In this document: positions 9,132-36,294 of the stretch, piece after piece
Position numbering within the stretch: the stretch's first letter is position 1
How the letters are laid out: each line of letters begins with the position of its first letter
Origin: an uncultured Candidatus Saccharibacteria bacterium
GTDB lineage: Bacteria; Patescibacteriota; Minisyncoccia; Minisyncoccales; Staskawiczbacteraceae
Direction: 5' to 3'
Assembly: GCA_964404005.1 (NCBI GenBank)
Contig: CAYOIH010000002.1
Span: 1 to 55,162 of the forward strand
DNA: 55,162 nucleotides
The notes under the pieces: model-generated
Databases searched by the model: none
Told to the model about the DNA's origin: nothing
The model's input: the letters and a program-made list of their open reading frames with translations, nothing else
Position numbers and translations under genes: made by a program

Positions 9132-10487
9132 TTATCCACTATATATTCTCTGTTTTATTAGGTTTAATTCTTCGGTTAATTTATTATTTTCTTCATTCTC
9201 TTGCAGGATTTTTTTATAAGCATAAATTGCGGTGGTGTGGTCTTTGCCACCAAACTTTCTTGCTATGGCTGGAAATGAGTATTTTAATTCTCTTCTTAAT
9301 AAAAACATCGCGATTTGCCTTGGTTTTACGATCTCCTTTCGTCTTGTCGGATCAAATAAACTTTTTTCTTCCAGATTATAAAATTTAGCGACGGTTTCTA
9401 TTATTTTTTTATAGTTTGCCACGTCAAACGGCGAAAAAACAAAACCCTTAAGCAGTTTTTTAACAATTTCTATGTTTATCTCCTGGTTAATTTTACTGTA
9501 AATTAATATTTTATTTAAGGCCCCCTCTAGTTCCCGAATATTTTTTTTAACATTAGTGGCGATATAATCTAATATGTCTTCGGGAACGTCTGTGTTCTTT
9601 TCTTGAAGTTTTGTTTTTAGAATAACCAATCTTGTTTCATAGTCCGGCAAACTCACGTCTGCAATCATCCCCCCTTCAAATCTGGACCTCAATCTTTCCT
9701 CCAGCTCTGCTATAGCATTTGGTGGCCTGTCTGAAGAAAGAATTATTTGTTTATTTTTTTCATATAAAGAGTTAAAAACATGGAAAAATTCTTCTTGGCT
9801 TTTATTTTTGCCGGCGATAAATTGAATGTCGTCTAAAATTAAAACGTCTATGGGCGCCAGGCTTGCCTTAAAAGATTCCATACTGTTTGTCCTGATGGCA
9901 GAGACAATGCCGGAAACAAATTTTTCCGAGGAAATATATTTTACTTTTTTCTTTTTTGCCTCGTCGTTTATTTTATTCCCGATAGCCTGTATTAGGTGTG
10001 TTTTGCCTAATCCGGTGCCACCATATATAAATAGCGGGTTATAAGTGAGCCCCGGATTATCGGCTACGGCTAGGGCGGCGGCGTGGGCTAATTCATTAAA
10101 AGATCCGACAACAAAATTATTAAATGTATACCGGGGGTTAAGGTTGGTTTCTTTATTTACTTTAAATTCCTCAAATTTTAATTGCACTTCTTCTTGTTTC
10201 TCGCTATTTGAGGCCACTTTGGCCGGGGTATTTTTTGATAATTGAGGTTTTATAATAAAATCTAAATCCTTTATGGAGTCATCTATATCATGCAGGGTTT
10301 TTAAAATTAATTTATTATATTTATTGCTCAGCCACTCTTTAGAAAAGGCGTTGGGGACCGAAATTATTATTTTTTCATTCTCCTTAGATATAATTTCAGT
10401 GTTTTGAAACCAAGTGGCAAAATTAGCCATAGATATATGAAACTGCATTTGTGCTAAAACTGACTGCCAAAGCTCTAAATTATCCAT
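9132..10487 (-). CDS. dnaA: Chromosomal replication initiator DnaA
   Basis: Walker A GGTGLGKTHLIQAIGN, Walker B LILDDIQFIAGK, C-terminal DNA-binding signature GGKDHTTAIYAYKKI. Confidence 0.96.
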   Translation of the reverse strand: MDNLELWQSVLAQMQFHISMANFATWFQNTEIISKENEKIIISVPNAFSKEWLSNKYNKLILKTLHDIDDSIKDLDFIIKPQLSKNTPAKVASNSEKQEEVQLKFEEFKVNKETNLNPRYTFNNFVVGSFNELAHAAALAVADNPGLTYNPLFIYGGTGLGKTHLIQAIGNKINDEAKKKKVKYISSEKFVSGIVSAIRTNSMESFKASLAPIDVLILDDIQFIAGKNKSQEEFFHVFNSLYEKNKQIILSSDRPPNAIAELEERLRSRFEGGMIADVSLPDYETRLVILKTKLQEKNTDVPEDILDYIATNVKKNIRELEGALNKILIYSKINQEINIEIVKKLLKGFVFSPFDVANYKKIIETVAKFYNLEEKSLFDPTRRKEIVKPRQIAMFLLRRELKYSFPAIARKFGGKDHTTAIYAYKKILQENEENNKLTEELNLIKQRIYSG

Positions 10488-12677: not shown

Positions 12678-13862
12678 TTAGATTATCGGGACAATGGTCA
12701 CACAATTTGGGACTACTCCGCCGTGGTTTCTTATTTCATCCCACTTTATTTGCAGGGGTCCGGTTTTATTTATGTCGTCTGGCGTAGGAAATTCTTGGCA
12801 CGAATCGTTCATAACACTCTTACACGTTTCCCCAGGACCGGCATAACTGAGTAAAACAAGATAATCTTTGCCTATTTTTATAGATGAAATATTTTCACCG
12901 CTAAGGGTCGGGCACCTTCTGCCGTCACTGGCGCATTTTCCGTCTTTATCATATTTTACGCAACTCTGTTCTTCTTCGGGCACGCCACAATTATTTTTTG
13001 CGGGAGAGGATGCGTCGCAATTACCCCCCATTGTAAAAGTTAAATCATCTAATTTTTTTATATAGAGGCCATTGATTTGAGAGCTTGGGACATAAAAATA
13101 TCCTCCGCAATCGTTAAAAAAAGATTTATGGTAAAAATATACCCCGTCGCCGGAAGGGTCAAAATTGTATTGATAAACAGATGCGGACGAAGCCCCAATT
13201 GGGCTTGGTTGACAGCCGCTTGGGTTGATGTACTGGCATTTTCCTTGAAAATTTATTGTCTCATATAAAATTGATACATAATAAGTGTCGTTATCTATGT
13301 CTGGTACGTTTTTTGCAGAATTTACTTTTTTTCTCAATGATGGCCCCAAATCTTTAGCGCTTGATGTATAAAGCTGGGCTTCTGCACCGGAGCATCCGGC
13401 GTTGTTATATAAATAAACGCCCGGAATTTGTTTTACTGCCGGAGCCGTTACTTCTGCGGCCGGTAATGGCGTTGTGGAGAATGCTTTAAGTTGGGGGTTA
13501 ATAGTGGTTATAATTAAATATGTTGAAACTAAAATTAGCAAACCGGATATTGCTCCCGACACCCTGTCTTTTGCGGCTCCCAGCAAGTCAGATTTTATCG
13601 GGGATAAAGCATACATTACCCCGGCGATAGCCAAAGAAATAAAAACAGCGGCAACGCCGACAAGCATTCCGGCATTAAATAAATATATTGCAAAATCAGG
13701 TAATTTTGTTTCAGGAGTTATGGTTTTTCCGGCTATTGTCGGATAACTTTTTACTTCTAACTCCGCCGCCAAAATTTTGTTTGTAGAAAAGCAAGAAAAG
13801 TTTCCACATAAAAAAACCAGGAAAATAACAGCGAGAATAAATTTTTTATATTTTTTTATCAT
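12678..13862 (-). CDS. Pilin-module fusion protein 4 (VirB2/TrbC-like two-TM N-terminus + Cys-containing extracellular domain)
   Basis: Start moved to MIKKYKKFIL (13862) to avoid overlap with the upstream gene. The order is signal peptide, TM1, loop LGAAKDRVSG, TM2, TINP, Pro-rich linker, then PGVYLYNNAGCSG... shared with the two upstream paralogs. Confidence 0.75.
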   Translation of the reverse strand: MIKKYKKFILAVIFLVFLCGNFSCFSTNKILAAELEVKSYPTIAGKTITPETKLPDFAIYLFNAGMLVGVAAVFISLAIAGVMYALSPIKSDLLGAAKDRVSGAISGLLILVSTYLIITTINPQLKAFSTTPLPAAEVTAPAVKQIPGVYLYNNAGCSGAEAQLYTSSAKDLGPSLRKKVNSAKNVPDIDNDTYYVSILYETINFQGKCQYINPSGCQPSPIGASSASVYQYNFDPSGDGVYFYHKSFFNDCGGYFYVPSSQINGLYIKKLDDLTFTMGGNCDASSPAKNNCGVPEEEQSCVKYDKDGKCASDGRRCPTLSGENISSIKIGKDYLVLLSYAGPGETCKSVMNDSCQEFPTPDDINKTGPLQIKWDEIRNHGGVVPNCVTIVPII

Positions 13863-13875
13863 TGTTAATCTTTTT

Positions 13876-14943
13876 TTATTTCGTCGGGATAATATAAATA
13901 TTTTCAACAGTATACCTGGCCGCGACAAACGGTTGCATATTCAGATTGGCCGCACTAGCGCTAAAAACCTGGCAATATCCCGCGCTATATAGGGCGACCA
14001 AATAATTTCCCTTAATATTTATAGAGCCGGGCCCATATTGGAATGTTCCATATAAACCCTTATATTGCGGTAGTGTTTTTTTAGAATATCCGCAGTTGTA
14101 GGAAGAACCGCCTCCTCCAAAATTCAGGTCGTTGGCCTCTATTTGGAGGATGCCGTTTATTTTATTGTTGCCGACCGTGCAAAAACCTTCTCCCCTGTTT
14201 TGCGCTCCGATATTGTATCCATAAGCTTCGCTATAAAAATCAATTCCAGTTCCACTGGGAGATGTATTATTATTTTTATTCAACGCAAAAATATCAACTG
14301 CATAGGCGCCCGTGCCAACCGGTTGGCAACCTTCGTCTATAATGGGCTGACTGCACGGTCCGACATTTTCCAATCCGGCTACGTTGTGAAAAATCACGCC
14401 GTAATAAATATTATTTGTTTTGTCGTTAATAATTTTAATTGATTTTATTTTTCCGGCAAAGGCGCTGTCTATATGGTCTTGCGAGGAAGTATTTGGGCCC
14501 GAGCTGTCTCCCGCGCAGCCGAGCTGTGTATAATAATAAACGCCCGGAATTATCGGCACTGCAATAGCTGGCGTCTCCGGCAATGGAGTCAGCCTTGGGG
14601 TTACAAGCGCAGGATTAATTGTGTACATAATTAAGTAAGCAGTCATTATTAAAATTAGCCCCAAAATAGCGTCTTTCATTCTGTCTTTTGAATTGCCGGC
14701 CAGTTCTGTGTTGTCGCCCGATATTATTAGGCCAACAGCTCCAATAACAAAAGAGATAAGGGCAATGGTCCCGCCAACAGAAATAGCCCAAGAAAAAATA
14801 AAGGTAATATATTTAGGAAGGTCGGGGTTGTCTCCCAATCCCTTGAGCGGAGACTCTAATGTTATAGCAGAAGCAAAAGCGGCGCTTGAAAAAAGAAAAG
14901 CGTTAGAAAAAGAAAAAAATAATAAAAATTTATTCTTCGCCAT
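13876..14943 (-). CDS. Pilin-module fusion protein 3 (paralog)
   Basis: Signal peptide, LPKYITFIFSWAIS..(TM1)..SGDNTELAGNSKDRMKDA..(TM2)..TINP, linker TPRLTPLPETPAIAVP, then PGVYYYTQLGCAGDSSGPNTSSQDHIDSAFAGKIKSIKIIND. Confidence 0.8.
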   Translation of the reverse strand: MAKNKFLLFFSFSNAFLFSSAAFASAITLESPLKGLGDNPDLPKYITFIFSWAISVGGTIALISFVIGAVGLIISGDNTELAGNSKDRMKDAILGLILIMTAYLIMYTINPALVTPRLTPLPETPAIAVPIIPGVYYYTQLGCAGDSSGPNTSSQDHIDSAFAGKIKSIKIINDKTNNIYYGVIFHNVAGLENVGPCSQPIIDEGCQPVGTGAYAVDIFALNKNNNTSPSGTGIDFYSEAYGYNIGAQNRGEGFCTVGNNKINGILQIEANDLNFGGGGSSYNCGYSKKTLPQYKGLYGTFQYGPGSINIKGNYLVALYSAGYCQVFSASAANLNMQPFVAARYTVENIYIIPTK

Positions 14944-14955
14944 ATTAATTGGCCA

Positions 14956-16110
14956 TTATTTTGTGGGGATTATGTAAACAGAGCCCCTCTTGTCGCCAGC
15001 CTCGCCGGCTTGTGCACTAATTTGTTCAGCGTCTAAGTTTTCAACATCTTTAATAAAGGTTTGGCAATCCGCATATTCGGAGTAGGGAGAAGATAAGCCG
15101 TAGACGGCAACCACATAGCTTCCATTTATTTTTATAGACCCGGGACAATCTTGGAATGTTTCACAGGCATTTTTAGAACAATCTATCCCCTCTTTATTGC
15201 CATCAGCGTCAGCAGACTTAGTGGAATCACATTTGTGTTTATACGCATCCAGTCTGTTAATATTTGTATAATCAAATTTTATATTATAAGTGTACAATTT
15301 GGTGATATTAGATATCTCTGTGTCTGTTATTATTTTTTTACCAGCATTAGCTCCCGTAGTCCAGCCGTATGCTTCACTATAAAAATCCACTCCTGTCCCG
15401 AAAGTATTGGGTGTCTTTTTATTTATTAAAAAAATATCAGCGGCAGAAAGGTTTTCCATGCCAGCACTAAAGTTATAACATTCTGTGGCATCTGTAACTG
15501 GGGAGCTGCAGACACCACCGTTTTCAAGCCCGGGAGTTGCGTGGAAAATAGCGCCGTAATAAATGTCTTTGGCCGGGTCATTAATAATTTTAATTGATTT
15601 TATTTTCCCGGCGAAGGCACTATCTATATGGTTTTGGGAAGAAGTATTTGGTCCAGAGCCGGTTCCTTTACAGTTGGACTCCGTATAATAGAAGACGCCC
15701 GTAATTATCGGCGTTGCAATAGCTGGCGCTGCCGGCAATGGGGTTAGTGTTGGAGTTTTAAATACAGGATTAATTGTAGTTAAAATTAAAAGAGAACAGA
15801 GCGTTAATAGCAACCCCATAACAGCTCCCTTCATTCGGTCTTTTGCATTAGAGCTTGCCTCGGTACTGTCGCCCGATATTATCAAACCAACAGCCCCCAC
15901 AATGAAAGAGATAAGAGAAAGAACCCCGGCAATGGAAATGGCCCAGGAAAAAATAAAGGTAATATATTTAGGAAGGTCGGGGTTGTCTCCTAAACCCAAA
16001 TTCACTTCCATTGCAGAAACGAAACAACCACCGCGAAAAAGAAAAGCGGTAAGAAACATTGAAAATATTAAAAATTTATTTTGCGTTGTTGTACTTTTTT
16101 TATGTCTCAT
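14956..16110 (-). CDS. Pilin-module fusion protein 2 (paralog)
   Basis: Same architecture. It shares a 44-nt identical block (15947-15990 vs 14792-14835) and IKSIKIIND with the downstream paralog; the C-terminal third is divergent. Confidence 0.8.
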   Translation of the reverse strand: MRHKKSTTTQNKFLIFSMFLTAFLFRGGCFVSAMEVNLGLGDNPDLPKYITFIFSWAISIAGVLSLISFIVGAVGLIISGDSTEASSNAKDRMKGAVMGLLLTLCSLLILTTINPVFKTPTLTPLPAAPAIATPIITGVFYYTESNCKGTGSGPNTSSQNHIDSAFAGKIKSIKIINDPAKDIYYGAIFHATPGLENGGVCSSPVTDATECYNFSAGMENLSAADIFLINKKTPNTFGTGVDFYSEAYGWTTGANAGKKIITDTEISNITKLYTYNIKFDYTNINRLDAYKHKCDSTKSADADGNKEGIDCSKNACETFQDCPGSIKINGSYVVAVYGLSSPYSEYADCQTFIKDVENLDAEQISAQAGEAGDKRGSVYIIPTK

Positions 16111-16129: not shown

Positions 16130-19123
16130 TTATTGAACAGTAGCTCCCTGAGAGCCAGAAGTTTTTTGATATTGTTGGCAACAAAACCAATTATCCGTTA
16201 AGGGTGTATCAAAAAGGTTTCCCAACTCTTTTCCATAACAATAAGAACTTATATCTTCGTTGTTAAGTGTTGTTTGGCCTGTGGTAATTGGAGATATTAA
16301 TTCGTCTTGAACCCTTGTGCAGTTTAACAGTCTGTTCTTTGAGTCGGAGCTCCTACTTGTCACACTACAATTATTTGTTGTTTGCCTTGAATAAGTTAAT
16401 TCTTTCATAATATCGCTTCTGGGCTCTTTAAGCATAGCCGTATAAAAATCTATAAAATCAAGTTTAAATTGCCGATAATAATCCCAAAGCTCCGCCAAAT
16501 AATCCGTAATTTGCTCACACGGGCTTCCTTTGCACGGATCAAGGATACAACTACAGTATGTATTTCCCTTGTCATCATTCCATTGGCCATATTGGCAATC
16601 GGTTTTACAAATTGGATTACTATTTTCAAATTTTGCGGCGCACCTACAATAATCTTGTACCGGGTTTGTGTCTTTTGCTTTTCCTATTATATACATCTCG
16701 GTAATCATATTTTGGATACTATTTTGCAGTTTGCCTACACTGTTTATTAAATTGTTGGCCCAATTTTCTGCGTTATCAACTGTTTGGCCAACCGGTATTT
16801 CCAACTCGCTGGGACAAACCTTTTCTGTCCCTATCGGCGTTACTCCGCTTTTTTCTCTATTTGGGTCTAACCACCAGTTATCCTGGCAATAAAAAGTTAA
16901 TGGATCATCATTTTGAGAATAACTATTACACTGAGGCCCAACCATTTGATAGGCGGAAAACGGCTGTTCTGTTGTATAGTAATTATCTTCGCCCGCAACC
17001 TTTTGGAAACTTTCTACTGGAATATAAAATTTTAAGGCCGTGTCTATCTGGTCGCATGGGCAACCCGGGCAATTAGAAGATGTTGGGCATTTTGCGGTTT
17101 CAGGATATATATCTTGGCATTTTCCACCACCAGTCAGTGAGGCGTATGGGTTTTTGCATTTTTGGCATTCGGGGTTTTCGTAAAAGAAGGATGCGGAGTT
17201 ATCTCCGGCTGAACACTTGCTGAGTCCGGGCGTAGCGCAATCCGGGTAGCCGGCATATTCATTAGACCCGTTTTTGCACAAATAAGCATTATTAATGCAG
17301 AAAGCTGTATTACCTTGGTCAGTAGTTGAGTCTGCGCAATTTTTAAATCCTTGTCCGCCAAATAAACAAACATCGGCGTTATTTATAACGCACTGTGAAT
17401 TATTTGCGCTTTGTTCTTCGCAAAAATCATACTCATTAGAACACGCTAAATATTTTTTTTCGCAGTCGCTTGCCTTCCCTCCCTGGCAGGCAGTTAAGCA
17501 ACCTGCGAAAGTTTTGGTATTCGATGGGTCCGGGGCAGCCGGGCATGGCCTTTCTTGGTAAGCCTCTTTGGCGGCTTTATCCAGGCACACCGTATCATCT
17601 TCTGCGCACTTGCCGGTTTTTTGTTGATAAAGCCCGACAGCATTGTCGCTTGTGTCCGGGCACATATCATTGCACGTTTTTAAACAGTTAGAATTATTAT
17701 AATTAAATCCTGCGCAATATTTTGATACGCTTATCGGCTTGCTTGCTGCGGGGTCATAAAATGTTTCCGGGTTGATTGAAATAAGCCGTTGTGTGTTGTC
17801 TGTGGTCTCGCGGGTTTTAATAAGGTCAAGATAAGGCATTGCCATATAGCAACTGTTTAATGTGTGCTTTGCCCTATCCAGCTCATTTTCGTCGGCTTGG
17901 ATTTTACTGTCTGTTGGCCAATTAGCTATTTTTTCTTTAAAGTATGTTTCTTGCTGTATAAGATTTAGTAATTTCCATTTGCTTTGGTCAATTAATATAA
18001 TTGTTTTATTGTCTATTCGAATTTGTTTTTCAACCCAGCCCGGTATGCCATAACACGGAGTTTGGATTTTTCCATCATTAGGATTTGGGCACCTGAATTC
18101 GTCTAGTCCTTTATATCCTCTTTCCTCGGTCAAACAGGCTCCGGCGGCGCCGCTGCTTGAACCGACATCAACAGACAAGAGTATATCTCCGTGTTCGATC
18201 TGATTTCTAACTCCATCGGGGCAACAGTCTTTTGTCGGTGGCTTACAGGCGCCACCTACGCAAGCCCCTATACACGCACCGGGGACATATCCGGGGCAAT
18301 TATTAATTGCATACGGCGTTTTCGTTGTAGAAAGGTCGCATCCGCCGTTTAACGGGTCGCAGACAGGATCGCATTTGCCCACGCAAGAGCATTGGTTCAT
18401 CAGTTTAGTTATCTCGTCGGACAGCCCGGCGATTATTTGTCCTTTTTTTTGGGCGCCGTCGGCCAGTTGCGTTAAACAGTCTGCTCTGTCGTGGTTTAAA
18501 TAAGTCGGGCCGGATATATAGCATTTGCCGCTGTTTTTATCGCATGTTTGTCCTTCGGGACAACCGGAAAAAAATCCGCAGTCCCCTGTTATTATTTTAT
18601 CTCCGGCGGCGGGATTTCCTTCCGGGTCAAAGCCATAACAATTCATAGTCCTTGTTAAAAGATTTTCAGTTAAAGTCCCAATAGGAATTTCTTGGTAGGT
18701 GGCTGTCGGAATGCCGGATTGAGAAGGGGTGGCATTCTTACTGGAAGAGTTAATGCCGGGCAGTGATAAAACCCCCATTTTACAGCTGGTTAGGTCGGGA
18801 TTAATTGTGCGGGCGATTAAAATCGCGCACACGGTTATTAAAAGTCCAAGGATTCCGGCTTTTATCCACTCTTTTGCTTCGCTTGTAAATTTCCCTCTCC
18901 CGTAAGAAACCAAATAATAAATTCCGCCAAAAACTATTGAAAGAACAGCTATAGTAACAGCTAAATTCATTGCCAAACCGAGAAGATAACAGACATATGC
19001 GCCAATGTCCGGTTTATTCCCTAGTCCCGGTAGTGGCACTTCTAAAGCTAAAACAAAACTGGCGTTTAATAGAAAAACGCAGTTTAAAAAAAGAGCCCAG
19101 AAAAATTTTTTACAAAAGACCAT
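16130..19123 (-). CDS. Pilin-module fusion protein 1: two-TM pilin-like N-terminus + ~860-aa extremely cysteine-rich extracellular domain
   Basis: N-terminus: signal peptide, TM1 ..AVTIAVLSIVFGGIYYLV, loop GKFTSEAKEWIKA, TM2, TINP. The remainder is hydrophilic with dense Cys motifs (CSCVGKCDPVCDP, CIGACVGGACKPPTKDCCPDG, CPGCPCDQ). 997 aa uninterrupted. Confidence 0.8.
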   Translation of the reverse strand: MVFCKKFFWALFLNCVFLLNASFVLALEVPLPGLGNKPDIGAYVCYLLGLAMNLAVTIAVLSIVFGGIYYLVSYGRGKFTSEAKEWIKAGILGLLITVCAILIARTINPDLTSCKMGVLSLPGINSSSKNATPSQSGIPTATYQEIPIGTLTENLLTRTMNCYGFDPEGNPAAGDKIITGDCGFFSGCPEGQTCDKNSGKCYISGPTYLNHDRADCLTQLADGAQKKGQIIAGLSDEITKLMNQCSCVGKCDPVCDPLNGGCDLSTTKTPYAINNCPGYVPGACIGACVGGACKPPTKDCCPDGVRNQIEHGDILLSVDVGSSSGAAGACLTEERGYKGLDEFRCPNPNDGKIQTPCYGIPGWVEKQIRIDNKTIILIDQSKWKLLNLIQQETYFKEKIANWPTDSKIQADENELDRAKHTLNSCYMAMPYLDLIKTRETTDNTQRLISINPETFYDPAASKPISVSKYCAGFNYNNSNCLKTCNDMCPDTSDNAVGLYQQKTGKCAEDDTVCLDKAAKEAYQERPCPAAPDPSNTKTFAGCLTACQGGKASDCEKKYLACSNEYDFCEEQSANNSQCVINNADVCLFGGQGFKNCADSTTDQGNTAFCINNAYLCKNGSNEYAGYPDCATPGLSKCSAGDNSASFFYENPECQKCKNPYASLTGGGKCQDIYPETAKCPTSSNCPGCPCDQIDTALKFYIPVESFQKVAGEDNYYTTEQPFSAYQMVGPQCNSYSQNDDPLTFYCQDNWWLDPNREKSGVTPIGTEKVCPSELEIPVGQTVDNAENWANNLINSVGKLQNSIQNMITEMYIIGKAKDTNPVQDYCRCAAKFENSNPICKTDCQYGQWNDDKGNTYCSCILDPCKGSPCEQITDYLAELWDYYRQFKLDFIDFYTAMLKEPRSDIMKELTYSRQTTNNCSVTSRSSDSKNRLLNCTRVQDELISPITTGQTTLNNEDISSYCYGKELGNLFDTPLTDNWFCCQQYQKTSGSQGATVQ

Positions 19124-19168: not shown

Positions 19169-20971
19169 CTATGCGGATTCTAAATTCCTTTTCACAGCCC
19201 TGTTTTGCATAACTTCTTGAGGATTAGTTGTGATTATTTGGTTTTCAGTCTGGCTGGCAACAACCGCCAAATAAACGTGTTTTCTTCCGGCAAAAAACAA
19301 TCCTTCTCCGACCGCCGCCTCAATCAATAAATATTTTTCTTGTTCAGTTAATTGGAAAGTTTTTTGTACAACATCAATATCAGCCGAAGATTGTTTCATT
19401 AATAATTGCAAAGACGAGTTTGTGATAATTGCCCGGCCGTAATCAGACCTCATAAAGTCGGCTACGTCCTGGGTGATAGTTGTAACTCCCAGCCAATATT
19501 TTCTCGCCCTTTTTACTAATCCAAAAAGGAAAGAGGCTCCGTCGTCAGACTGCATCAGCCACCACGCCTCATCAATGACCAAAATTCTCTTTTTCAACTT
19601 TGACCTGACCATATTCCAAATATACCTCATAATAATATATAGGGCGATCGGCCTTAATGATTCTTCCATATCTCGTATCCCAAAAACAACAAAACTTTTT
19701 TCTATGGAAATATTCGATTGCTGGTTAAAAAAATCAGAAAAAGTTCCTTTGGTAAATTTTTTAATCCGATTAACTAAAGATCCTGTTCCCGTCATACTTT
19801 CCAAAATTTCCTGGAAGTCAGACATTAAAGGAGTATTATTAGCCCATGTTTTTGGGTCTGATTCAGAAGTGATATCTCTTACAGCATAGGTTTCCGTAAG
19901 CGCTTCATCCAAAATACTGTCCTCTTCGGGCGTCAACCCGCCCAGCATAATTCTTAAAAGTCCGACCAAGTTTATCACATTAGACCTTAAAATATCTTCC
20001 GGGTTATCGTCCGGGCCGGGAAGAGGCAAATCAAACGGGTTTAAATGGTTTGGCGAAGTTAAAGAAATTTTTAAAAATGCTCCGCCCACCGCATCCGCCA
20101 AAAATTCATACTCATTTTCCGGGTCAATAATTATGCAATCAACTCCCTGCATTAAATATCTTAAAATTTCCAGCTTTATCGCAAAAGATTTTCCGGAGCC
20201 GGATTTCGCAAAAACCACCATATTAGCGTTTTCCAAACTGAATCTGTCAAATAAAACCAAAGAATTATTATGCCTGTTGACGCCGTATAAAATCCCTTCA
20301 TTAGAGCTCAAGTCAAAAGAAATAAATGGGAAGCAAGTTGATAATGGGCCTGTATCCATTGGAGTGTGAACTTCTATCAAATCCATACCGTAAGGGCTAC
20401 AGGAAATAAATCCTTCTTTCTGTTTATACAAAGCCGGTTTTATATAAATTAATCTGGATTCAAAAATTGACCTTAATGTAAGTTCCACGTCTTTTAATTC
20501 TTTTTCTGAATTTTCATAAACCGTTATATAAAGCCCGAATCTGAACATTTTTTCCTGGGCGGTCATTAAATTATCTCTAAGAGTTTCAATGTCCTGATAT
20601 GCTGTCTGTAGAGCGGGATCTCTAATCAGCCCCTTTTCTTCCCTTTCTAAAACCTCTGAAGAAACTTCTGTAATTTTTTTTCTTAATTTTTTTAAAATCA
20701 GCTCCGAGCTTACAGGATGTATAAAAAATGAAATATCTACTGGAGTGTTTAAATCAATAACCGGAGAAAACCAGCCCGTATTTAAATATCGGGGATAAGA
20801 AAAAACAAAAAAAGATTTAGCGAATCTTTCCCCCAGTTTTATGTGGTCTTGAGTTACTCCAATATATGGCGGAGCGATAATATCCCTTACATCAAACTCC
20901 TCTTCCTGAAAAAGTTTTTCTTCCGCCAGATTTTCCTGTTTTTTTCCTAAAAGATTGTCTAAAAATTTCAT
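19169..20971 (-). CDS. virB4: VirB4/TraC/TrbE-family type IV secretion ATPase
   Basis: Walker A VVFAKSGSGKSFAIK, Walker B RILVIDEAWWLM, and an N-terminal region with the pattern (..FVFSYPRYLNTGWFSPVIDL..DISFFIHP) seen in conjugative VirB4-like ATPases of Gram-positive-type systems. Confidence 0.85.
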   Translation of the reverse strand: MKFLDNLLGKKQENLAEEKLFQEEEFDVRDIIAPPYIGVTQDHIKLGERFAKSFFVFSYPRYLNTGWFSPVIDLNTPVDISFFIHPVSSELILKKLRKKITEVSSEVLEREEKGLIRDPALQTAYQDIETLRDNLMTAQEKMFRFGLYITVYENSEKELKDVELTLRSIFESRLIYIKPALYKQKEGFISCSPYGMDLIEVHTPMDTGPLSTCFPFISFDLSSNEGILYGVNRHNNSLVLFDRFSLENANMVVFAKSGSGKSFAIKLEILRYLMQGVDCIIIDPENEYEFLADAVGGAFLKISLTSPNHLNPFDLPLPGPDDNPEDILRSNVINLVGLLRIMLGGLTPEEDSILDEALTETYAVRDITSESDPKTWANNTPLMSDFQEILESMTGTGSLVNRIKKFTKGTFSDFFNQQSNISIEKSFVVFGIRDMEESLRPIALYIIMRYIWNMVRSKLKKRILVIDEAWWLMQSDDGASFLFGLVKRARKYWLGVTTITQDVADFMRSDYGRAIITNSSLQLLMKQSSADIDVVQKTFQLTEQEKYLLIEAAVGEGLFFAGRKHVYLAVVASQTENQIITTNPQEVMQNRAVKRNLESA

Positions 20972-20990: not shown

Positions 20991-21653
20991 CTATTTTAAA
21001 AGCTCGGGTAGGATTTCCGGGTAATATCCGATCTCGGCTTGGTCGGGGTGGTGTATCGCCCAAAAAAGTTCTATGAGTTCCGGTGTTGTTAATGGCACAG
21101 ACTCTAATCCACATCTTCTCAGCCCCATTGATAAATATTCCATTCTCTGCCAGAGCTGGGTTTTGCATCTTTGGAATTCATCGTCTTTCATCGGCTGATT
21201 TTGTGGGGTCGCGCCCGGAAGCTTTAAAAAACTGAATTGTTTTGACATTCCTTTCATGCCTAATATTTCCATCAAATTATATGGGACGACAACATAAAAG
21301 TTTTTTGTCATAACCATATCCCCCACAACCATGTTTTTTATAAATTCTCTGTAAGAAGCTGTTTGTTCCCTTAATAACGAGTTGGTTTGTCTCTCTTCCA
21401 AATCTTTTAACCCGTCTAAATAAGGAGTAATATTTATATTTCTTGATTGGATAACTATCTGGCAGAAAAAATCTAAAGAATTTAAAAAACTTTGGAAAGC
21501 ATAAATTATGGCGGTTTGTTCTTCTTCTGACTTCAACGCAAAATTTATTGAAGAGACCATTAAAATTCCCCTTATAGAATTATTTTTCAGAAGCAAAACT
21601 CCCTCCCTTATATCTTGTATTTCTAAAAATGCTTGCGTGGCTGATTCGGCCAT
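20991..21653 (-). CDS. T4SS-associated 220-aa protein (resembles a VirB4/TrbE N-terminal domain; function unknown)
   Basis: Tightly packed between the PrgI-like gene (12-nt gap) and virB4 (19-nt gap). The pattern DIREGVLLLKNNSIRGILMVSSINFALKSEEEQTAIIYAFQSFLNSL...QIVIQSR recalls the pre-ATPase domain of VirB4/TrbE proteins. Confidence 0.55.
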   Translation of the reverse strand: MAESATQAFLEIQDIREGVLLLKNNSIRGILMVSSINFALKSEEEQTAIIYAFQSFLNSLDFFCQIVIQSRNINITPYLDGLKDLEERQTNSLLREQTASYREFIKNMVVGDMVMTKNFYVVVPYNLMEILGMKGMSKQFSFLKLPGATPQNQPMKDDEFQRCKTQLWQRMEYLSMGLRRCGLESVPLTTPELIELFWAIHHPDQAEIGYYPEILPELLK

Positions 21654-21665
21654 AGTAACCTTTCT

Positions 21666-22073
21666 TTATTTTGTTTTTAATTCTACTTGTGTTTTTATTC
21701 TTTTCAGTTGGCTTGTCTGGGCCTGCAAAACAGGGCCTTGTTCTATTTTTCTAATCTGAGTCCTTTGGATAGGTTTAAACGGATAAGGAGACTCTGCTTT
21801 CTTCCAAACATAATTTTTTCCGCCCATCGAAAAACCAATCGCCCCTAAAATCATATTTAAAATTGGCACACCGTTTATTGTTGCAAAGGCGAGTATCCCC
21901 GCTCCGGTAAAAAGCAATAAAGCCACCATATAAAAAATAATCTTTGGTAAAATCCAATATAGAAAAAAGCAAATAACGCCGGCTCCCACCAGATAGAAAA
22001 ATTGTCGGAAAGATATAAAGAAAGCAATTTTACTTTCTTGCTCAATAAATTGTGGTATAGGATATTGTTCCAT
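21666..22073 (-). CDS. PrgI-family / VirB3-like small membrane protein
   Basis: Start placed at MEQYPIPQFIEQESKIAFFISFRQFFYLVGAG (22073). This motif plus two TM helices matches the PrgI (VirB3-analogue) architecture of Gram-positive T4SSs. The upstream 48 codons of the listed ORF overlap the promoter region. Confidence 0.65.
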   Translation of the reverse strand: MEQYPIPQFIEQESKIAFFISFRQFFYLVGAGVICFFLYWILPKIIFYMVALLLFTGAGILAFATINGVPILNMILGAIGFSMGGKNYVWKKAESPYPFKPIQRTQIRKIEQGPVLQAQTSQLKRIKTQVELKTK

Positions 22074-22092: not shown

Positions 22093-22122
22093 ATTATACC
22101 ATGCATAAAAAAGTACAGACAA
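22093..22122 (-). promoter_or_regulatory. Putative promoter of the T4SS-like operon (TTGTCT-18-TGgTATAAT)
   Basis: The minus strand reads ttgtct gtacttttttatgcatgg tataat. The extended -10 TGn is present, and -10 ends 19 nt before the ATG at 22073. Confidence 0.5.
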
Positions 22123-22139
22123 CAACAGTTCTCAACACC

Positions 22140-22168
22140 TTGACAAGGGTGTTTTAATATGATATAAT
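22140..22168 (+). promoter_or_regulatory. Consensus sigma70 promoter (TTGACA-17-TATAAT) for the SPFH gene
   Basis: ttgaca (22140-22145), 17-nt spacer, tataat (22163-22168). A leader hairpin gtgcgg-gtgta-ccgcac follows, then SD aggag (22236-22240) 7 nt before the ATG. Confidence 0.75.
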
Positions 22169-22247: not shown

Positions 22248-23402
22248 ATGAGTAGTTTATTTACAGCTTTTCTGTGGAACTTGTTACTGGTGGTCGGAGT
22301 CCTTGTAATCGGATATTTGATTGTTTTGGGGTTGGCCAGGACCAACATCCTGTTCACTCGCGTTGAACAGGGCTGGTGCAAGATCATCCTGAGGTGGGGA
22401 AAATATGCAAGGACAATTGGGCCTGGCTTGCGATGGTTCGGAATTCCCGGCATGCACACTTTTTACCGGAAAAAGATGACGTTTTTGAAGAGCATGACCG
22501 AGCCGGACGGCACACCTAAAGCCGAGCCCCATCCCCGCGAGAATGAAAAGGACGGGGGTATTGTTGGTAGTTTTAAGACCACTCGGTACCCCTACGCCCT
22601 TCCCTTCAAGGACGAAGAAGACAGTCGTGCGCTACCCCTGTCAGGCGTTCTGGCGGTGTTCGGCGTCATAGAGGATTATAGGGCAGCCTTTTTTGACGCA
22701 GATGATTGGTACGCCGAAATGAACACTAGAATTCTGGCGTGTTTCCGCGACCTTATCGCCGAGATTTCGTACGACGACGACATCGTCGGACGAGACACGA
22801 AAAGAGAGCAGGCCCTAAAGACCATTAGTGTGCGGCTGTGGGAAGAGCTGAATTCCGAACAAAACGGCAACCCTTCGATACTCGATGAGTTGTATGTTGC
22901 CGCCGGAATCTGGGTTGAGTCAGTGGTGTTGAGAAGTATTGACCCCCCAGAAGGTTATCGGGCGACCACTCTCGCTCCCTACATGGCGCAAAGGGCGAAA
23001 GAGGCTGCCAAGTATCAGGCAGAGACCAGTGCCGTGTTGTTTAACGATACCAACCTGGCCCTGAAAAAGTGGCTAGCCAGTCACAAGAACGCCACGCAGT
23101 CCCAGATTGAAGCTAAGCAAAACGAGCTTCGCCAACGGGCCCTGGCGAAGACCAACGGTTACCAGCAGATTGATGTTAAGGGCCTCGAGAACGCTACCAC
23201 CGCGGTCGTCGGCGGAGGTGGCGCGGGCGTTATGGTCGGTGCCGGCGGTAAAAATCCGCAACCAGCACCGGGCCAGGGTAATAAAGGAGGTAAAAGACAA
23301 GAAGACAAGACGGATGAGGAATTGGCGGAAGAATTCAAAAAGCGTAGGGGAAAATATCCTCCGGGATATAATCCCGCCACGAAGTCTTTCGGCAATTCAT
23401 AG
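22248..23402 (+). CDS. SPFH/band-7 (stomatin-prohibitin-flotillin-HflK/C) domain membrane protein with Gly-rich basic tail
   Basis: N-terminal TM, then VEQGWCKIILRWGKYARTIGPGLRWFGIPGMH (the SPFH entry motif v.eg...v..r.Gk....gPGl.f..P). C-terminal coiled-coil and GGGGAGVMVGAGG tail. Visibly G+C-richer than the flanks. Confidence 0.75.
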   Translation: MSSLFTAFLWNLLLVVGVLVIGYLIVLGLARTNILFTRVEQGWCKIILRWGKYARTIGPGLRWFGIPGMHTFYRKKMTFLKSMTEPDGTPKAEPHPRENEKDGGIVGSFKTTRYPYALPFKDEEDSRALPLSGVLAVFGVIEDYRAAFFDADDWYAEMNTRILACFRDLIAEISYDDDIVGRDTKREQALKTISVRLWEELNSEQNGNPSILDELYVAAGIWVESVVLRSIDPPEGYRATTLAPYMAQRAKEAAKYQAETSAVLFNDTNLALKKWLASHKNATQSQIEAKQNELRQRALAKTNGYQQIDVKGLENATTAVVGGGGAGVMVGAGGKNPQPAPGQGNKGGKRQEDKTDEELAEEFKKRRGKYPPGYNPATKSFGNS

Positions 23403-24073: not shown

Positions 24074-26086
24074 TTATGGCCTTCCGCCCGCGGGGGGTGG
24101 CGCAGGTGGCGTAGGCGCAGGCCTTCCGCCGGCAGGAGCGGTGCGTCCATATAATGACCCACCTATCAATCTGCCCAAAGAATCTGCAAGCTTATTTAAT
24201 CTATTCGCTTCTTGAGTGTCTTGAGCTCGCCCCGCCGCTCCTGCGGCGGCGCGTATCGCCGGTTCAAAACTGGAAAGTTGGTTTTGTGTTGCCCCGGGCG
24301 CTAATCTGGCTTTGCGTATATCTGAAGTGCTCATCTCTGAAACCAGATTTGGATCCAGGTGCCTTCCTTCAACTCTGCTCCATTGTCCCGCAGACATTCC
24401 TTTATGTACATTTTCAGAAAGTTGGTTTTGGCTAGCTCTGTGCGCTTCTTCTGCTGTGCCACCGCGCGCCAATACCTCCTCTCCGGCCAATTGATAGTTC
24501 TTCTCACGGGCTTTTTTGCCTATATCTGTGGCCCCCATACTCTCCGCGCGTCTAAGTTGTGTGTGTGCTGCACTCCAGTTTGTTGTCCCGTCAGGGTTTC
24601 TAAATGCTTCATGCAAATCTCCTGCTTCGTTTACGGCCATAAGGGCTGCGGCGCCTTTAAATCCTCTATCTCTCCTCGCCCGCCCCTGTATTCTTTGCAT
24701 AGCACCAGTATCGCCTCGTGCTTTTGCGGCATTATATTCGGCAGTAACGCCCTTTGCTTCAGTATCAACGCGGGAGTTTTCTTTCATCGCAGTGGTTCCT
24801 TCACTGCGCAAGCCAATTCTTTCCATCATCCTGCCGGTGGATGAACTTATTGCCCGTCCTACGTTAGACACCCTGTTTCCTGTCATTTTGTCTGCTATTT
24901 TGGCGCCTCTCTTAAGTGCCCCACCCGCTGCTCCCAGCGCAAGCCCAGCCGCTCCGCCCGCTATTCCCATAATAGCGCTAGATACCATTGGTGCCACAGA
25001 GCTGACCATTTTATATCCGATAAAAAGGAAGATAAAAGCAACAAACAAAACATTAAAATCTACGGCACCATTTGCCGCGGTCATTATGGTCACGGCTAAA
25101 TAAATAAAAAACGCAGCGCCGACTCCTATAAAAGACCATTTAATAAAATTATCCGACCACTTAGTCCATAATTTTTTTGTTGGAGGGAATATCCAAAAAG
25201 CAAAAGCCAAAGGAGACAGTATAAAAAGCACAGCAAGTACGGCGTATCTTGCAGCGAGTAAAAGAGCCATGAGTGCAAGCGAGTAAGCTGCTATTATTTC
25301 AAAGATAGCTACGCTAGCGCACAAACCTAAATATGCCGCTGGATTTATCGCCGAGGTAGTTGCACCCGGGCCACCAGGAGCACTTTTTTTTGTATTAGCC
25401 GCCACATCAATTTCTTCTCCCTTGAGCGTACTTGCCGCATAATCGTTGATAGTAGCAGATAGACCAATAACCGATTCGCTGGTTTTGTTTCCCCCCAGTA
25501 AACCATTCATTGTTATGTTCCCAGTGTCAATAATTAGCCCACAAAACAAGCCTGAAAAATTAACAAAAAGAGCCACAACTATTAATTTCCACAAAAGCTG
25601 TTTTGCTGCGTATTCTCTAATTCTCAAACTTGTGGCCACGCCCACAACGATAAAACCTAAAACAATAAGCATATCAGCAATATTTCGAACCTGTGCCCAT
25701 GCTAATTTAAATGTTTCGTTTCCTGTAATGGTCTGCTGGTTGAATGACGGGCTTGTGACATAAGATAAAAATTGAGAAGCATATTGAAAAAGGCTGCTTG
25801 CGATTGAGATAAGAAGCGTTCCAAGTCCAACAAGTAAGTCGCTAAAAAAACCCTGTGTCCCAGATTTAATGTCGGATTTGACTGAATAATATCCCCATAC
25901 GGCTAACCCCGCAGCGACTACACCAGTAATAATCAGGGCGGTGCCAGAAATCACAAGGCCACGTTCTTTATTTTCGGTATCAAAAATTGGCGATAAAAAA
26001 TCTTTAAATTTTCCACGAGTTATGTAATATTTTATCAGTATATTTTCAGAAAAAGATGAGACTTTTTTCGTAATTTTTTTAATCAT
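24074..26086 (-). CDS. Polytopic (about 9-10 TM) membrane protein, VirB6/TrbL-like by topology and context, with ~280-aa hydrophilic G+C-rich C-terminal extension
   Basis: Successive hydrophobic segments through residue ~390. The tail is rich in A/G/R and ends in GRPAPTPPAPPPAGGRP. It lies adjacent to the VirB3/VirB4/pilin operon. Confidence 0.5.
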   Translation of the reverse strand: MIKKITKKVSSFSENILIKYYITRGKFKDFLSPIFDTENKERGLVISGTALIITGVVAAGLAVWGYYSVKSDIKSGTQGFFSDLLVGLGTLLISIASSLFQYASQFLSYVTSPSFNQQTITGNETFKLAWAQVRNIADMLIVLGFIVVGVATSLRIREYAAKQLLWKLIVVALFVNFSGLFCGLIIDTGNITMNGLLGGNKTSESVIGLSATINDYAASTLKGEEIDVAANTKKSAPGGPGATTSAINPAAYLGLCASVAIFEIIAAYSLALMALLLAARYAVLAVLFILSPLAFAFWIFPPTKKLWTKWSDNFIKWSFIGVGAAFFIYLAVTIMTAANGAVDFNVLFVAFIFLFIGYKMVSSVAPMVSSAIMGIAGGAAGLALGAAGGALKRGAKIADKMTGNRVSNVGRAISSSTGRMMERIGLRSEGTTAMKENSRVDTEAKGVTAEYNAAKARGDTGAMQRIQGRARRDRGFKGAAALMAVNEAGDLHEAFRNPDGTTNWSAAHTQLRRAESMGATDIGKKAREKNYQLAGEEVLARGGTAEEAHRASQNQLSENVHKGMSAGQWSRVEGRHLDPNLVSEMSTSDIRKARLAPGATQNQLSSFEPAIRAAAGAAGRAQDTQEANRLNKLADSLGRLIGGSLYGRTAPAGGRPAPTPPAPPPAGGRP

Positions 26087-28168: not shown

Positions 28169-29317
28169 TTGTTAAAACTACTTACTAAGGCTCTAACAAA
28201 AATAAAGGAGAGTTGCCACCCGGCTAAGACTGTGCGCGGGGGCACCAATCAAAAAAGGCTATTGAAAAATCCTTTGTTTTATTTTGCATTAGTTTCTGTT
28301 GTTTTGTTTTGGGGAATGTGCGCGTCTTGTGGGAACTCGGCCGGCGCGGGAAATCTTAACGGCAACCATGTTGCTTTTTTTAATTCATTTTTTAGCAAGT
28401 CGGGCGGCCTCAACGGTGACAACTTATTTTTTAGTAAAGCCAGCGCAATTGCGTTAGAAACTCCGGATTTGAAAATAATACAAAATAATACCGTGGGCGG
28501 GATATCGGCTCCCTCAATTGTTTCGGGAAAAACCTTAGGAGATGTGTTTGGTGGAACCATCCAGGATAAAAAAAATGTAGCTGATTATACGGTACAGCCT
28601 GGAGATACTTTGCAATCGATTGCAGACGCTTATGGGATATCGGTTAATACATTACTCTGGGCAAATAGCCTCACAAGTTCTTCTGTAATTAAAGTTGGCC
28701 AAAGTTTAATTATTTTGCCCACAGATGGAGTTTTGCATGTTGTAAAATCCGGGGACACTGTTTCGGGAATTGCGCAAACATATAAATCGCAGGTAAATGA
28801 TATTATTTCTTACAACGATTTAGCCACTCCGGACGTTTACATTGGAGATATTTTAATTGTACCGGGAGGTACAATGCCCAAAGCGAAGGTGGCAACTCCT
28901 ATTATAAATAATAACCAAGTTCCTCTGGCCAGCAATTATTTTATATTCCCAACTCAAGGAAGAATAACACAGGGGCTTCATTATTATAATGCCATTGATG
29001 TCGCAAATAGTTGCGGAACGTCCGTTTATGCGGCGGCTTCCGGCAAGGTGCAAAGGGCCGTTTACAACAACGCTTGGAATGCGGGTATGGGAAATTATGT
29101 TACAATTTTGCATCCTAACGGCACAGCTACTTATTATGGTCACCTCTCTAATGTTTTTGTAAAACCGGGCGACCCAGTTACTCAAAGCGACAGGATCGGC
29201 TTAATAGGCAACACAGGAAACGTGGTCGGTGCAACTGGATGCCACCTGCACTTCCAGGTTATTGGAGCTACAAATCCTTTGGCGAAATATCCTGTCGGAA
29301 CAAAAATCCATTATTAA
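28169..29317 (+). CDS. LysM-domain M23 family metallopeptidase (start codon uncertain: TTG 28169 or GTG 28232)
   Basis: N-terminal TM. Two LysM repeats (YTVQPGDTLQSIADAYGISVNTLLWAN; HVVKSGDTVSGIAQTYKSQVNDIISYN). M23 motifs HYYNAIDV and GNTGNVVGATGCHLHFQV. Confidence 0.88.
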   Translation: MLKLLTKALTKIKESCHPAKTVRGGTNQKRLLKNPLFYFALVSVVLFWGMCASCGNSAGAGNLNGNHVAFFNSFFSKSGGLNGDNLFFSKASAIALETPDLKIIQNNTVGGISAPSIVSGKTLGDVFGGTIQDKKNVADYTVQPGDTLQSIADAYGISVNTLLWANSLTSSSVIKVGQSLIILPTDGVLHVVKSGDTVSGIAQTYKSQVNDIISYNDLATPDVYIGDILIVPGGTMPKAKVATPIINNNQVPLASNYFIFPTQGRITQGLHYYNAIDVANSCGTSVYAAASGKVQRAVYNNAWNAGMGNYVTILHPNGTATYYGHLSNVFVKPGDPVTQSDRIGLIGNTGNVVGATGCHLHFQVIGATNPLAKYPVGTKIHY

Positions 29318-35691: not shown

Positions 35692-35778
35692 TTTCTATAA
35701 ATATGAAAGCGCTTCCGGCGCCCTCGTTAATCGTTTAATAATATGTATAATATACTCTATTTTTGTTTTTTTGTAAAG

Positions 35779-35849
35779 TGCCCCTACTCAGAATCGGACT
35801 GAGATAGGCTGCTTAAGAGGCAGCTACTTTACCATTAAGTTATAGGGGC
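35779..35849 (-). tRNA. tRNA-Lys (anticodon CUU), no encoded CCA
   Basis: Hand fold: acceptor gccccta/taggggc, D arm actt-aatggta-aagt, anticodon arm gctgc-ctCTTaa-gcagc, T arm ctcag-tccgatt-ctgag, discriminator A. Confidence 0.8.
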
Positions 35850-35871: not shown

Positions 35872-36294
35872 TTAAAATAGTGAGGTTAGCTTATAAATAT
35901 AGCTGATAGGAGTGGCCCCTATTGCGCCCAAGATAAAATTGATTATCGCTTTTGAGCCCAAAGCCAGGACCAAACCGATAATTCCAGCCCAAAGAATTTT
36001 TTTGCCAAGGCCAAACCAGCCGGGGTCGCCCGCAGAAATCATCATAAAAATCGCTCCGACTAAAATTGCTATTGTTGCCAGCGGTGCAGCTATATATTTT
36101 ACGATGAAGTCGTAAATTTTTATAATCATAGTAAAAAAATCTGTTAATTTGCACGCATCACTTCCGTCTGACGCGCAACCACAATTTACTATTCCGCTTC
36201 CATCTCCGCAAGCAGCTCTTACAGAAAATGGAATAAAAATTACTGATAATAAACAAAATATAACTACTGTAAAAAATATTTTTTTAGTGTTCAT
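35872..36294 (-). CDS. Stand-alone VirB2/TrbC-like T4SS pilin-family protein (140 aa)
   Basis: Start placed at MNTKKIFF (36294); the listed longer ORF runs through tRNA genes. Signal peptide, Cys-containing segment CGDGSGIVNCGCASDGSDAC, then two TM helices separated by ISAGDPGWFGLGKK, as in the N-terminal modules of genes 12678-19123. Confidence 0.7.
   Translation of the reverse strand: MNTKKIFFTVVIFCLLSVIFIPFSVRAACGDGSGIVNCGCASDGSDACKLTDFFTMIIKIYDFIVKYIAAPLATIAILVGAIFMMISAGDPGWFGLGKKILWAGIIGLVLALGSKAIINFILGAIGATPISYIYKLTSLF

Follow-up and report, generated by a model that had tools for sequence, protein, structure and literature searches.

The window analysed here, a stretch of 55,162 nucleotides from an uncultured Candidatus Saccharibacteria bacterium (contig CAYOIH010000002.1), is the chromosomal origin region of a Patescibacteria (candidate phyla radiation, CPR) genome and encodes on its minus strand a 997-aa protein, hereafter the giant, in which a two-helix pilin module precedes a very cysteine-rich ectodomain. 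On the best reading, which we hold with moderate confidence, the giant is a modular VirB2-type pilin of a chromosomal, dnaA-proximal Patescibacteria type IV secretion system (T4SS) and is displayed on the pilus, or on a stub of it, for contact with the host. The ectodomain is probably the part of the T4SS machine that meets the host cell. An earlier note on this DNA had proposed a tip adhesin or host-recognition subunit, which would be a reasonable inference from the location of the protein and its evolutionary pattern. The gene and its parts are the following.

16130–19123, minus strand: whole gene of the putative 997-aa modular VirB2-like pilin with Cys-rich ectodomain; the stop codon lies at 16130–16132.
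19046–19123, minus strand: Sec-type signal peptide (aa 1–26), identified by hydropathy, with MVFCKK followed by a hydrophobic core and predicted cleavage between VLA and LE.
18794–19045, minus strand: VirB2/T4SS_pilin-like hairpin (aa 27–110) with helix 1 (~40–75), basic loop RGKFTSEAKEWIK, helix 2 (~81–109) and TINP.
18710–18793, minus strand: flexible linker (aa 111–138) of low conservation, with a predicted local distance difference test score (pLDDT) <50 for residues 115–136.
16133–18709, minus strand: ectodomain (aa 139–997), mixed alpha/beta, with 62 Cys and a fold that was not recognised.
18209–18391, minus strand: hypervariable Cys-knot loop (aa ~245–305), where the family accepts most of its insertions, with the highest proportion of nonsynonymous differences (pN) in the gene, 0.36.

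The open reading frame (ORF) is intact and starts with ATG. Its product contains 68 Cys (6.8%), 63 of them within residues 116–997, a region that is also acidic (isoelectric point 4.6); the Cys share amounts to 0–1.1% in the cytoplasmic proteins of the window (VirB4, DnaA, PNPase and others) and to 1.7–3.4% in three small paralogues. Hydropathy analysis delineates the leader (1–26), hydrophobic helices at ~40–75 and ~85–109 and a K/R-rich loop (76–88) between them, and AlphaFold2 (AF2) models helices at 40–75 and 81–107 followed by disorder at 115–136. In the paralogues the leader is predicted to be cleaved at the aligned position, directly after VSA and ASA. The giant thereby displays the topology of VirB2, namely a cleavable leader (cleavage being predicted), two transmembrane helices, a short charged loop and both termini outside, and departs from its small size (~70–130 aa when mature) with ~860 aa C-terminal to the hairpin. 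The claim of the earlier note that a pilin module is fused to an ~860-aa Cys-rich extracytoplasmic domain is hence confirmed by the intact ORF, the Cys counts, the topology and BLASTP of the module. All motifs that it had quoted are found in the translation: EAKEWIKA at 82–89, TINP at 106–109, CSCVGKCDPVCDP at 245–257, CIGACVGGACKPPTKDCCPDG at 284–304, CPGCPCDQ at 685–692 and CRCAAKFENSNPICKTDC at 826–843. No internal repeats were detected by self-BLAST, and no RNA features overlapping the gene were found by Rfam and tRNA scans.

That the N-terminal module is shared with three paralogues encoded downstream was borne out by BLASTP (E=1e-12 for the 384-aa protein p384, 6e-17 for the 355-aa protein p355 and 6e-9 for the 416-aa protein p416), as was its relation to a stand-alone pilin of the window (E=1e-4). 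The region of match comprises the N-terminal ~115 residues of the giant, and its large ectodomain matches none of these proteins. The curated cut-off of the pilin family PF18895 is passed by p384 (30.1 bits) and p355 (32.6 bits); 19 of 37 members of the giant's own family match PF18895 (best E=6e-5), and in the giant itself the match spans aa 49–106 (profile positions 14–70 of 71). A profile built from the five pilin modules of the window matches small stand-alone PF18895 pilins and one PF04956 pilin, to E=3e-24; the matches listed for it were all proteins <200 aa, with known long members missing, and are no gauge of the frequency of fusions. Since the paralogues pass the PF18895 cut-off and match the module of the giant, and since the module profile finds PF18895 proteins, homology of this module to VirB2-like pilins appears well supported by transitivity, not from the sequence of the giant alone. 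Residues 76–100, covering the cytoplasmic loop and the start of helix 2, are the best-conserved 25-residue window in the whole protein (0.72), which argues against a role as a passive membrane anchor.

A database search with the giant returned 157 homologues (33–81% identity), most of which are 900–1400 aa long and cover 97–99% of the query, and a profile search yielded 232 clusters at 50% identity with E<=1e-30. Among the best 150 profile matches listed, more than 80 cluster representatives cover the profile from ~1–5 to ~970–979 in one ORF; the further ~21,000 weak matches presumably come from the pilin module. Orthologues are thus mostly single full-length ORFs, and the assembly artefact that the earlier note had considered, two separate ORFs joined by error, does not apply. 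Almost all named homologues stem from Candidatus Staskawiczbacteria or Parcubacteria bins, and a few are already labelled 'pilin' by NCBI. The window itself appears to come from a Staskawiczbacteria/Paceibacteria-like lineage. The full-length homologue P0015 is labelled 'Gammaproteobacteria bacterium' by NCBI; since all other named matches are from CPR only, it is probably a mis-binned contig. In five independent loci (L001–L005) an orthologue of the giant occupies the same slot directly after virB4. The pilin-module profile detected exactly one giant and 2–3 small fusions in each of these loci, and no stand-alone pilin within 10 kb of virB4. The earlier note had called the fusion unusual, and VirB2 proteins characterised so far are indeed small and unfused; it is, however, not a one-off, as every pilin module adjoining virB4 in this lineage is fused.

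The neighbourhood of the gene is that of a VirB2 gene, with VirB4, TrsD and PrgI encoded directly upstream and a VirB6/TrbL-like protein 5 kb upstream.

19169–20971, minus strand: VirB4-type ATPase of 600 aa (PF19044, AAA_10, DUF87), 45 nt upstream of the gene of the giant.
20991–21653, minus strand: TrsD/TraC-like protein of 220 aa, a detached VirB4 N-terminal-like component (PF11130, E=1.2e-5; orthologues match PF26593, TraC-like).
21666–22073, minus strand: PrgI/VirB3-like protein of 135 aa from its likely true start (PF12666, E=3.6e-7; orthologues of 135 aa).
24074–26086, minus strand: polytopic VirB6/TrbL-like membrane protein of 670 aa (the syntenic orthologue in L004 matches PF19590, TrbL_3; tblastn gives 32–35% to syntenic genes).

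The minus strand encodes, one after another, the VirB6/TrbL-like protein, a 199-aa ORF, PrgI, TrsD, VirB4, the giant and the three small pilin-module proteins, with an SPFH gene on the plus strand between the 199-aa ORF and PrgI. The same order holds in the window and in L001–L005: VirB6-like protein, small ORF, a gene of ~360–420 aa, PrgI, TrsD, VirB4, giant, 2–3 small pilin fusions, Jag, YidC, RnpA, dnaA and dnaN. Near the locus lie dnaA (9132–10487, ~6 kb from the gene of the giant), dnaN and the genes for a class A penicillin-binding protein, RnpA, YidC, Jag, KsgA, PNPase, DprA and H+-PPase. The gaps flanking the gene of the giant measure 45 nt and 19 nt and neither contains a terminator-like site, so co-transcription with virB4 is likely. 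The VirB6/TrbL-like protein of the window has no Pfam match of its own, and its assignment therefore rests on position and orthology; the program-listed PrgI ORF extends to 22217, with a promoter-like site at 22122–22093. With VirB4, TrsD, PrgI/VirB3, a VirB6-like protein and a VirB2-like array near dnaA, the locus matches the T4SS described for Patescibacteria in PMC12102498, which reports an MPF-FATA-related VirB4, TrsD, PrgI, VirB6 and arrays of 2–11 VirB2-like pilins, often beside dnaA and without a relaxase. In keeping with this description, Pfam scans of the 57 main non-overlapping window ORFs of at least 110 aa contained no relaxase or coupling-protein family; the 11 ORFs of at least 110 aa outside these scans sit wholly within scanned genes on the opposite strand. 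In Southlakia, T4SS genes and the pilin array are reported to be essential for epibiotic growth (PMC10633639; PMC12857230).

The structure prediction and Foldseek search that the earlier note had suggested for the ectodomain gave a model and no fold match. The AF2 model of the giant, based on a 37-sequence alignment, has a pLDDT of 78.6 and a predicted template modelling score (pTM) of 0.75 and depicts a body of several domains with mixed alpha/beta structure; a Foldseek search of PDB and BFVD found nothing at E<0.7. No sequence relatives were found in the PDB by phmmer or the family profile, and neither Pfam (E<=5, ectodomain alone) nor NCBIfam assigned a family to the ectodomain, Pfam matches being confined to the pilin module. 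In particular, no VirB5, VirB8 or VirB1-like fold or catalytic domain was detected by Foldseek (PDB/BFVD), PDB sequences or Pfam, and Pfam revealed no SLT, CHAP, M23 or other hydrolase domain in the giant. The pipeline is able to detect folds, because it resolved p384 as a pilin hairpin with tandem βγ-crystallin domains. The fold of the ectodomain may be new.

According to the earlier note, Cys positions that vary among homologues would have spoken against its proposal. The Cys positions are the most conserved feature of the family, with a mean column identity of 0.87 for Cys compared to 0.42 for non-Cys columns; 43 of the 63 ectodomain Cys are at least 90% conserved, and across 108 sequences an even number of Cys columns, 46, reaches this level. 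Disulfide pairing was judged by evolutionary coupling of Cys columns. Both Cys of the pair 345/357 are present in 73 sequences and absent in 34, with one mixed case and ~11–12 independent changes on a neighbour-joining tree, and for the long-range pair 770/982 the corresponding numbers are 87, 17 and 4 mixed (~10–13 changes). There are only 3 His and two CxxC motifs. The earlier note had left open a disulfide-rich or a metal-binding domain; disulfides are favoured and metal sites disfavoured, because Cys are gained and lost in pairs, His and CxxC are few and the domain lies outside. CxxC/CxxH ligand sets that are kept or lost as sets, in a cytoplasmic or cofactor context, are not a feature of the giant. 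The note had also considered such a domain surprising for anaerobes. Since an enrichment of MdbA-like oxidoreductases, often adjoining VKOR, is reported for CPR genomes (bioRxiv 10.1101/335083), disulfide-rich surface proteins are not very surprising here.

The giant evolves much faster than the conserved parts of its locus. Its orthologues share 34–35% identity with the window copy where VirB4 reaches 85%, TrsD 82% and DnaA 85–88% (VirB4 identity across related loci is 85–94%), a divergence similar to that of the small pilin fusions (30–46%) and the VirB6-like protein (~34%) in the same genomes. Compared to L005, the closest relative, the ratio of nonsynonymous to synonymous substitution rates (dN/dS; one Nei-Gojobori pair) is 0.155 for the giant, 0.033 for VirB4 and 0.027 for DnaA, and local windows of the giant never exceed 0.53 in this pairwise comparison, in which no site model was used. 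These ratios indicate that the gene evolves fast under relaxed constraint, and they do not speak for positive selection across its whole length. The positive selection for which the earlier note had suggested a test is hence not seen gene-wide in this single pair; the variability is concentrated in one Cys-loop. Divergence from L005 is mosaic at the nucleotide level: positions 17378–18127 are 91–95% identical and positions 18272–18413 (aa ~237–284) only 47%. This 750-nt block, which is more alike to L005 than virB4 is, has a proportion of synonymous differences of only 0.13–0.28. The closeness of the 91–95% block to the 47% block suggests recombination or cassette exchange within the gene.

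The 47% segment corresponds to the hypervariable Cys-knot loop, in which the Cys framework is kept and the residues between the Cys vary. Longer relatives carry inserts of 200–380 aa at the same site (query ~250–322), which comprise Peptidase_M23 (34–43 bits, cut-off 28.7), Peptidase_M10/metzincin with an intact HELGHSLGLKD and Met-turn, and coiled coil; secondary insertion sites of the family lie near residues 635–640, 700–720 and 850. The M23-like inserts of P0023, P0096, P0107, P0099 and P0119 match only the C-terminal half of the Pfam profile. A segment downstream of them, '...AQDW...GG..V.IKH', resembles the N-terminal half of M23, and the domain may be circularly permuted.

The remaining pilin modules of the window belong to the following proteins.

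14956–16110, minus strand: small modular pilin p384, with pilin module, Pro/Thr linker and tandem βγ-crystallin-like domains (PF18895, 30.1 bits; AF2 pLDDT 83).
13876–14943, minus strand: small modular pilin p355, a paralogue of p384 with 49% identity (PF18895, 32.6 bits; BLASTP versus p384 E=2e-110).
12678–13862, minus strand: small modular pilin p416, 394 aa from the likely ATG (BLASTP E=1e-34 to p355; pilin-profile match).
35872–36294, minus strand: stand-alone 140-aa VirB2-like pilin, a candidate major pilin (weak PF18895 and PF04956 matches; module alignment).

All three small paralogues combine the PF18895 hairpin with a Pro/Thr-rich linker, and βγ-crystallin-like domains were modelled for p384. 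Foldseek matched this model with a probability of 1.00 to γS-crystallin 7n39_A (E=9.5e-4, TMt 0.66) and to the microbial βγ-crystallins 2bv2 (TMt 0.77), 3hz2 and 5z6e; the double Greek-key of βγ-crystallins is thus predicted for p384, a paralogue only and not the giant. A Pfam sequence match to these domains was found in none of the small paralogues. By BLASTP the small paralogues have mutually related ectodomains, which show no similarity to the large one of the giant. P0411 (664 aa), a relative of p384, carries a Peptidase_M23 domain. The stand-alone pilin, for which the earlier note had the coordinates right (a longer program-listed ORF to 36447 overlaps two tRNA-Arg genes), is the only unfused pilin in the window and lies 17 kb away among tRNA genes, with two tRNA-Arg upstream and tRNA-Lys (35778–35849) downstream.

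Some further features of the locus and its surroundings were observed. The VirB6/TrbL-like protein (24074–26086) ends in a long hydrophilic C-terminal tail rich in Ala, Gly and Pro (...APAGGRPAPTPPAPPPAGGRP) and is only ~34% identical to its syntenic orthologues. The opposite-strand gene inside the T4SS cluster (22248–23402, plus strand; ~360–420 aa) has a Band_7/SPFH match in the window, and the syntenic genes are without a Pfam record. It is preceded by a 12/12 sigma-70-like promoter with extended -10 (22140–22168), keeps its position in L001–L005, is poorly conserved in sequence past L005 (77% there, 24% in L003) and encodes a Gly-rich, charged tail. A LysM-LysM-Peptidase_M23 protein at 28169–29317 (plus strand), ~9 kb from virB4, is a candidate VirB1-like cell-wall hydrolase. 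Small PF05635 (23S rRNA-intervening-sequence protein) genes stand between the PrgI and TraC-like genes in L001–L003 and not in the window, L004 or L005, and in L005 a PDDEXK_3 gene lies upstream of the one for PrgI. Finally, a Mg-chelatase/ComM-like gene adjoining dprA (40995–41924) is split into 41940–42896 (plus strand; ChlI and the N-terminal part of Mg_chelatase) and 42900–43475 (plus strand; the rest and Mg_chelatase_C), as it also is in the public contig L007.

Taken as a VirB2-type pilin, the giant would lose its Sec leader, as predicted from sequence, and insert its hairpin with the basic loop in the cytoplasm, so that, judged by sequence and model, the 28-residue linker and the ~97-kDa ectodomain would lie outside. 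There, perhaps up to ~32 disulfides would lock the ectodomain, their pairing being backed by evolutionary coupling. The hairpin would then dock on the VirB6-like platform as a VirB2 subunit. A ~9-nm tube has no room for a 97-kDa domain on each of its subunits. Because the C-terminus would lie on the outer pilus face and such a domain is unpackable on every subunit, the giant would most likely be a sparse component, or else make up the distal layer that is assembled first in a short pilus or stub. In every solved conjugative pilus the N- and C-termini of VirB2 are found on the outer face (bioRxiv 10.64898/2025.12.18.695078), and the ectodomain would therefore project outward. The conserved Cys-stapled scaffold with its one loop of observed hypervariability would be presented to the host envelope and may act as a display platform for binding or remodelling that envelope, an idea that arises because relatives hold M23-like, metzincin or coiled-coil modules at the loop site. 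The three small modular pilins (βγ-crystallin type) and the 140-aa stand-alone pilin would provide the other subunits. A tube of 8.6 nm x 61 nm was seen by cryo-electron tomography between an epibiont of the Saccharimonadia, another class than Paceibacteria, and its host (PMC11880426). We regard it as possible, though doubtful, that in this lineage modular VirB2 pilins, a kind of subunit so far undescribed in any T4SS, build an essential T4SS filament on which the giant forms a distal cap, e.g. a pentamer, with ~100-kDa disulfide-knotted domains of a new fold, and that the hypervariable Cys-loop, or in relatives the peptidase cassettes exchanged into it, sets the host and breaches its envelope for the tube.

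The same module and slot might instead belong to a membrane-anchored, envelope-spanning base component of the T4SS that never polymerises, stands in for VirB8, VirB1 or the VirB5 stalk, which Patescibacteria seem to be missing, and uses its hairpin only to dock to VirB6/VirB4. We consider this main rival rather unlikely, although the slot directly downstream of virB4 is held by cell-wall hydrolases or peptidases in monoderm systems and Southlakia (as reported in PMC12102498), some relatives carry M23-like inserts, exactly one giant copy is present per locus, and the pTM of 0.75 indicates a defined inter-domain arrangement, not beads on a string. VirB8 is moreover described as poorly detectable in Patescibacteria (PMC12102498). 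A base component is harder to reconcile with a protein that has neither a hydrolase domain nor a VirB8, VirB5 or VirB1-like fold and whose hypervariable loop points to an external partner that it is exposed to. Divergence as fast as that of other surface components would likewise be unusual for a core part, yet the VirB6-like protein has diverged just as far. A secreted effector or toxin precursor, tethered by the hairpin and cut at the flexible linker to release the ectodomain onto or into the host, is improbable. The disordered linker, the enzymatic inserts of relatives and a disulfide-rich, protease-resistant design typical of secreted proteins would suit it; a cleavage motif is not evident, however, a disposable tether would not be expected to hold the best-conserved segment of the protein, as the hairpin loop does, and the same hairpin and linker on unrelated βγ-crystallin ectodomains fit display better than release.

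Dense Cys with CxC, CC and CxxxC motifs are also what a metal-binding or redox protein would offer, with Zn, Fe-S or metallothionein-like clusters instead of disulfides. We judge this very improbable given the extracytoplasmic topology, the scarcity of His and CxxC, the even number of highly conserved Cys columns and the gain and loss of Cys as pairs, including the long-range pair, not as threes or fours; Pfam matched no metal-binding family. The probability that two fused ORFs or a non-coding ORF were mistaken for a gene is negligible, this artefact being refuted by single full-length ORFs, by an intact gene in five independent assemblies with synteny, by the dN/dS of 0.155 and by the confident AF2 model.

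Several points weigh against the preferred reading of the giant as a displayed VirB2-type pilin. The entry of a 997-aa protein into a pilus, on which it turns, is itself deduced. The giant alone scores 15.8 bits (E=0.015) against PF18895, below the cut-off of 26.6 bits. Its ectodomain is without a recognisable binding or enzymatic fold (Foldseek PDB/BFVD, PDB sequences, Pfam), and the term adhesin is for this reason an argument from location and evolutionary pattern. The dN/dS lies well below 1, in a single pair with dS ~0.7, near saturation. The giant itself has no M23-like insert, and those of its relatives cover profile positions ~43–87 of 96 and contain HxH with no canonical HxxxD nearby, so that their activity is uncertain. 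A Dsb, MdbA or VKOR gene was not found in ~75 kb, that is, the window and 10 kb past each of its ends. To our knowledge, no Paceibacteria T4SS has been studied experimentally. T4SS essentiality is known only in a Saccharimonadia species (PMC10633639).

If the preferred reading is right, the giant would be a concrete candidate for the element that contacts the host: a conserved VirB2 pilin, present as a single copy, whose disulfide-stapled ectodomain of 97 kDa has a hypervariable loop and, in relatives, exchangeable peptidase cassettes. [quoted passage not shown] The giant would break the rule of small, unfused VirB2 pilins, and the family that it adds is sizeable, with 232 clusters at 50% identity and a fold unmatched in PDB or BFVD. 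The interest lies mainly with T4SS and CPR specialists, and the mechanism rests on inference.

Compared with other T4SS components, the giant shares with the VirB5 tip adhesins and PrgB a proposed role in T4SS-associated target-cell contact, but neither resembles it in structure or sequence and both lack a VirB2 hairpin; in Patescibacteria, PMC12102498 reports no detection of PrgB-like adhesins. With the VirB1/PrgK hydrolases of MPF-FATA systems it has in common the position just after virB4, N-terminal membrane anchoring and, in some relatives, M23-like inserts, whereas it has no SLT, CHAP or M23 domain and a separate LysM-M23 protein is encoded at 28169–29317. Extended VirB6 proteins, as described in PMC12857230, are likewise T4SS membrane components with a large, hydrophilic extracytoplasmic domain. 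They have at least five transmembrane helices, whereas the giant has a predicted cleaved leader, two helices and a pilin-family match, and a separate VirB6/TrbL-like gene is present at 24074–26086.

In type IV pilins a prepilin peptidase removes a class III signal peptide, and one α1 helix stands at the N-terminus. The giant has neither such a signal peptide nor a single α1 helix. Modular type IV pilins such as PilB and PilC of Streptococcus sanguinis (Raynaud et al. 2021, PMC8179133; PMC9934059), in which a polymerisation module and a bulky functional domain are described to make an adhesive minor subunit, are the nearest concept and yet comparable by analogy only: they belong to an unrelated filament class, and the giant combines a Sec leader with a two-helix VirB2 hairpin. 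Close to the giant are also the VirB2/TrbC pilins (PF18895) and the Patescibacteria 'VirB2 arrays' as described in PMC12102498 and PMC10633639, with which it shares the signal peptide, two hydrophobic helices, a short basic loop and a setting of tandem, divergent pilin genes alongside VirB4, TrsD, PrgI and a VirB6-like gene near dnaA. Such pilin arrays near dnaA have already been published (Quinonero-Coronel et al. 2025, PMC12102498; Wang et al. 2023, PMC10633639). VirB2-ectodomain fusions are not mentioned in the available text of PMC12102498, PMC10633639 and PMC12857230, and in the literature searched we found no description of a VirB2 module fused to large ectodomains, notably of the ~1000-aa Cys-rich family. 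Characterised VirB2 pilins are small and unfused (bioRxiv 10.64898/2025.12.18.695078), whereas the module of the giant bears an ~860-aa Cys-rich ectodomain. Hence, the Patescibacteria T4SS with its pilin arrays near dnaA is known, and the fusion of VirB2 modules to large ectodomains is what appears to be new.

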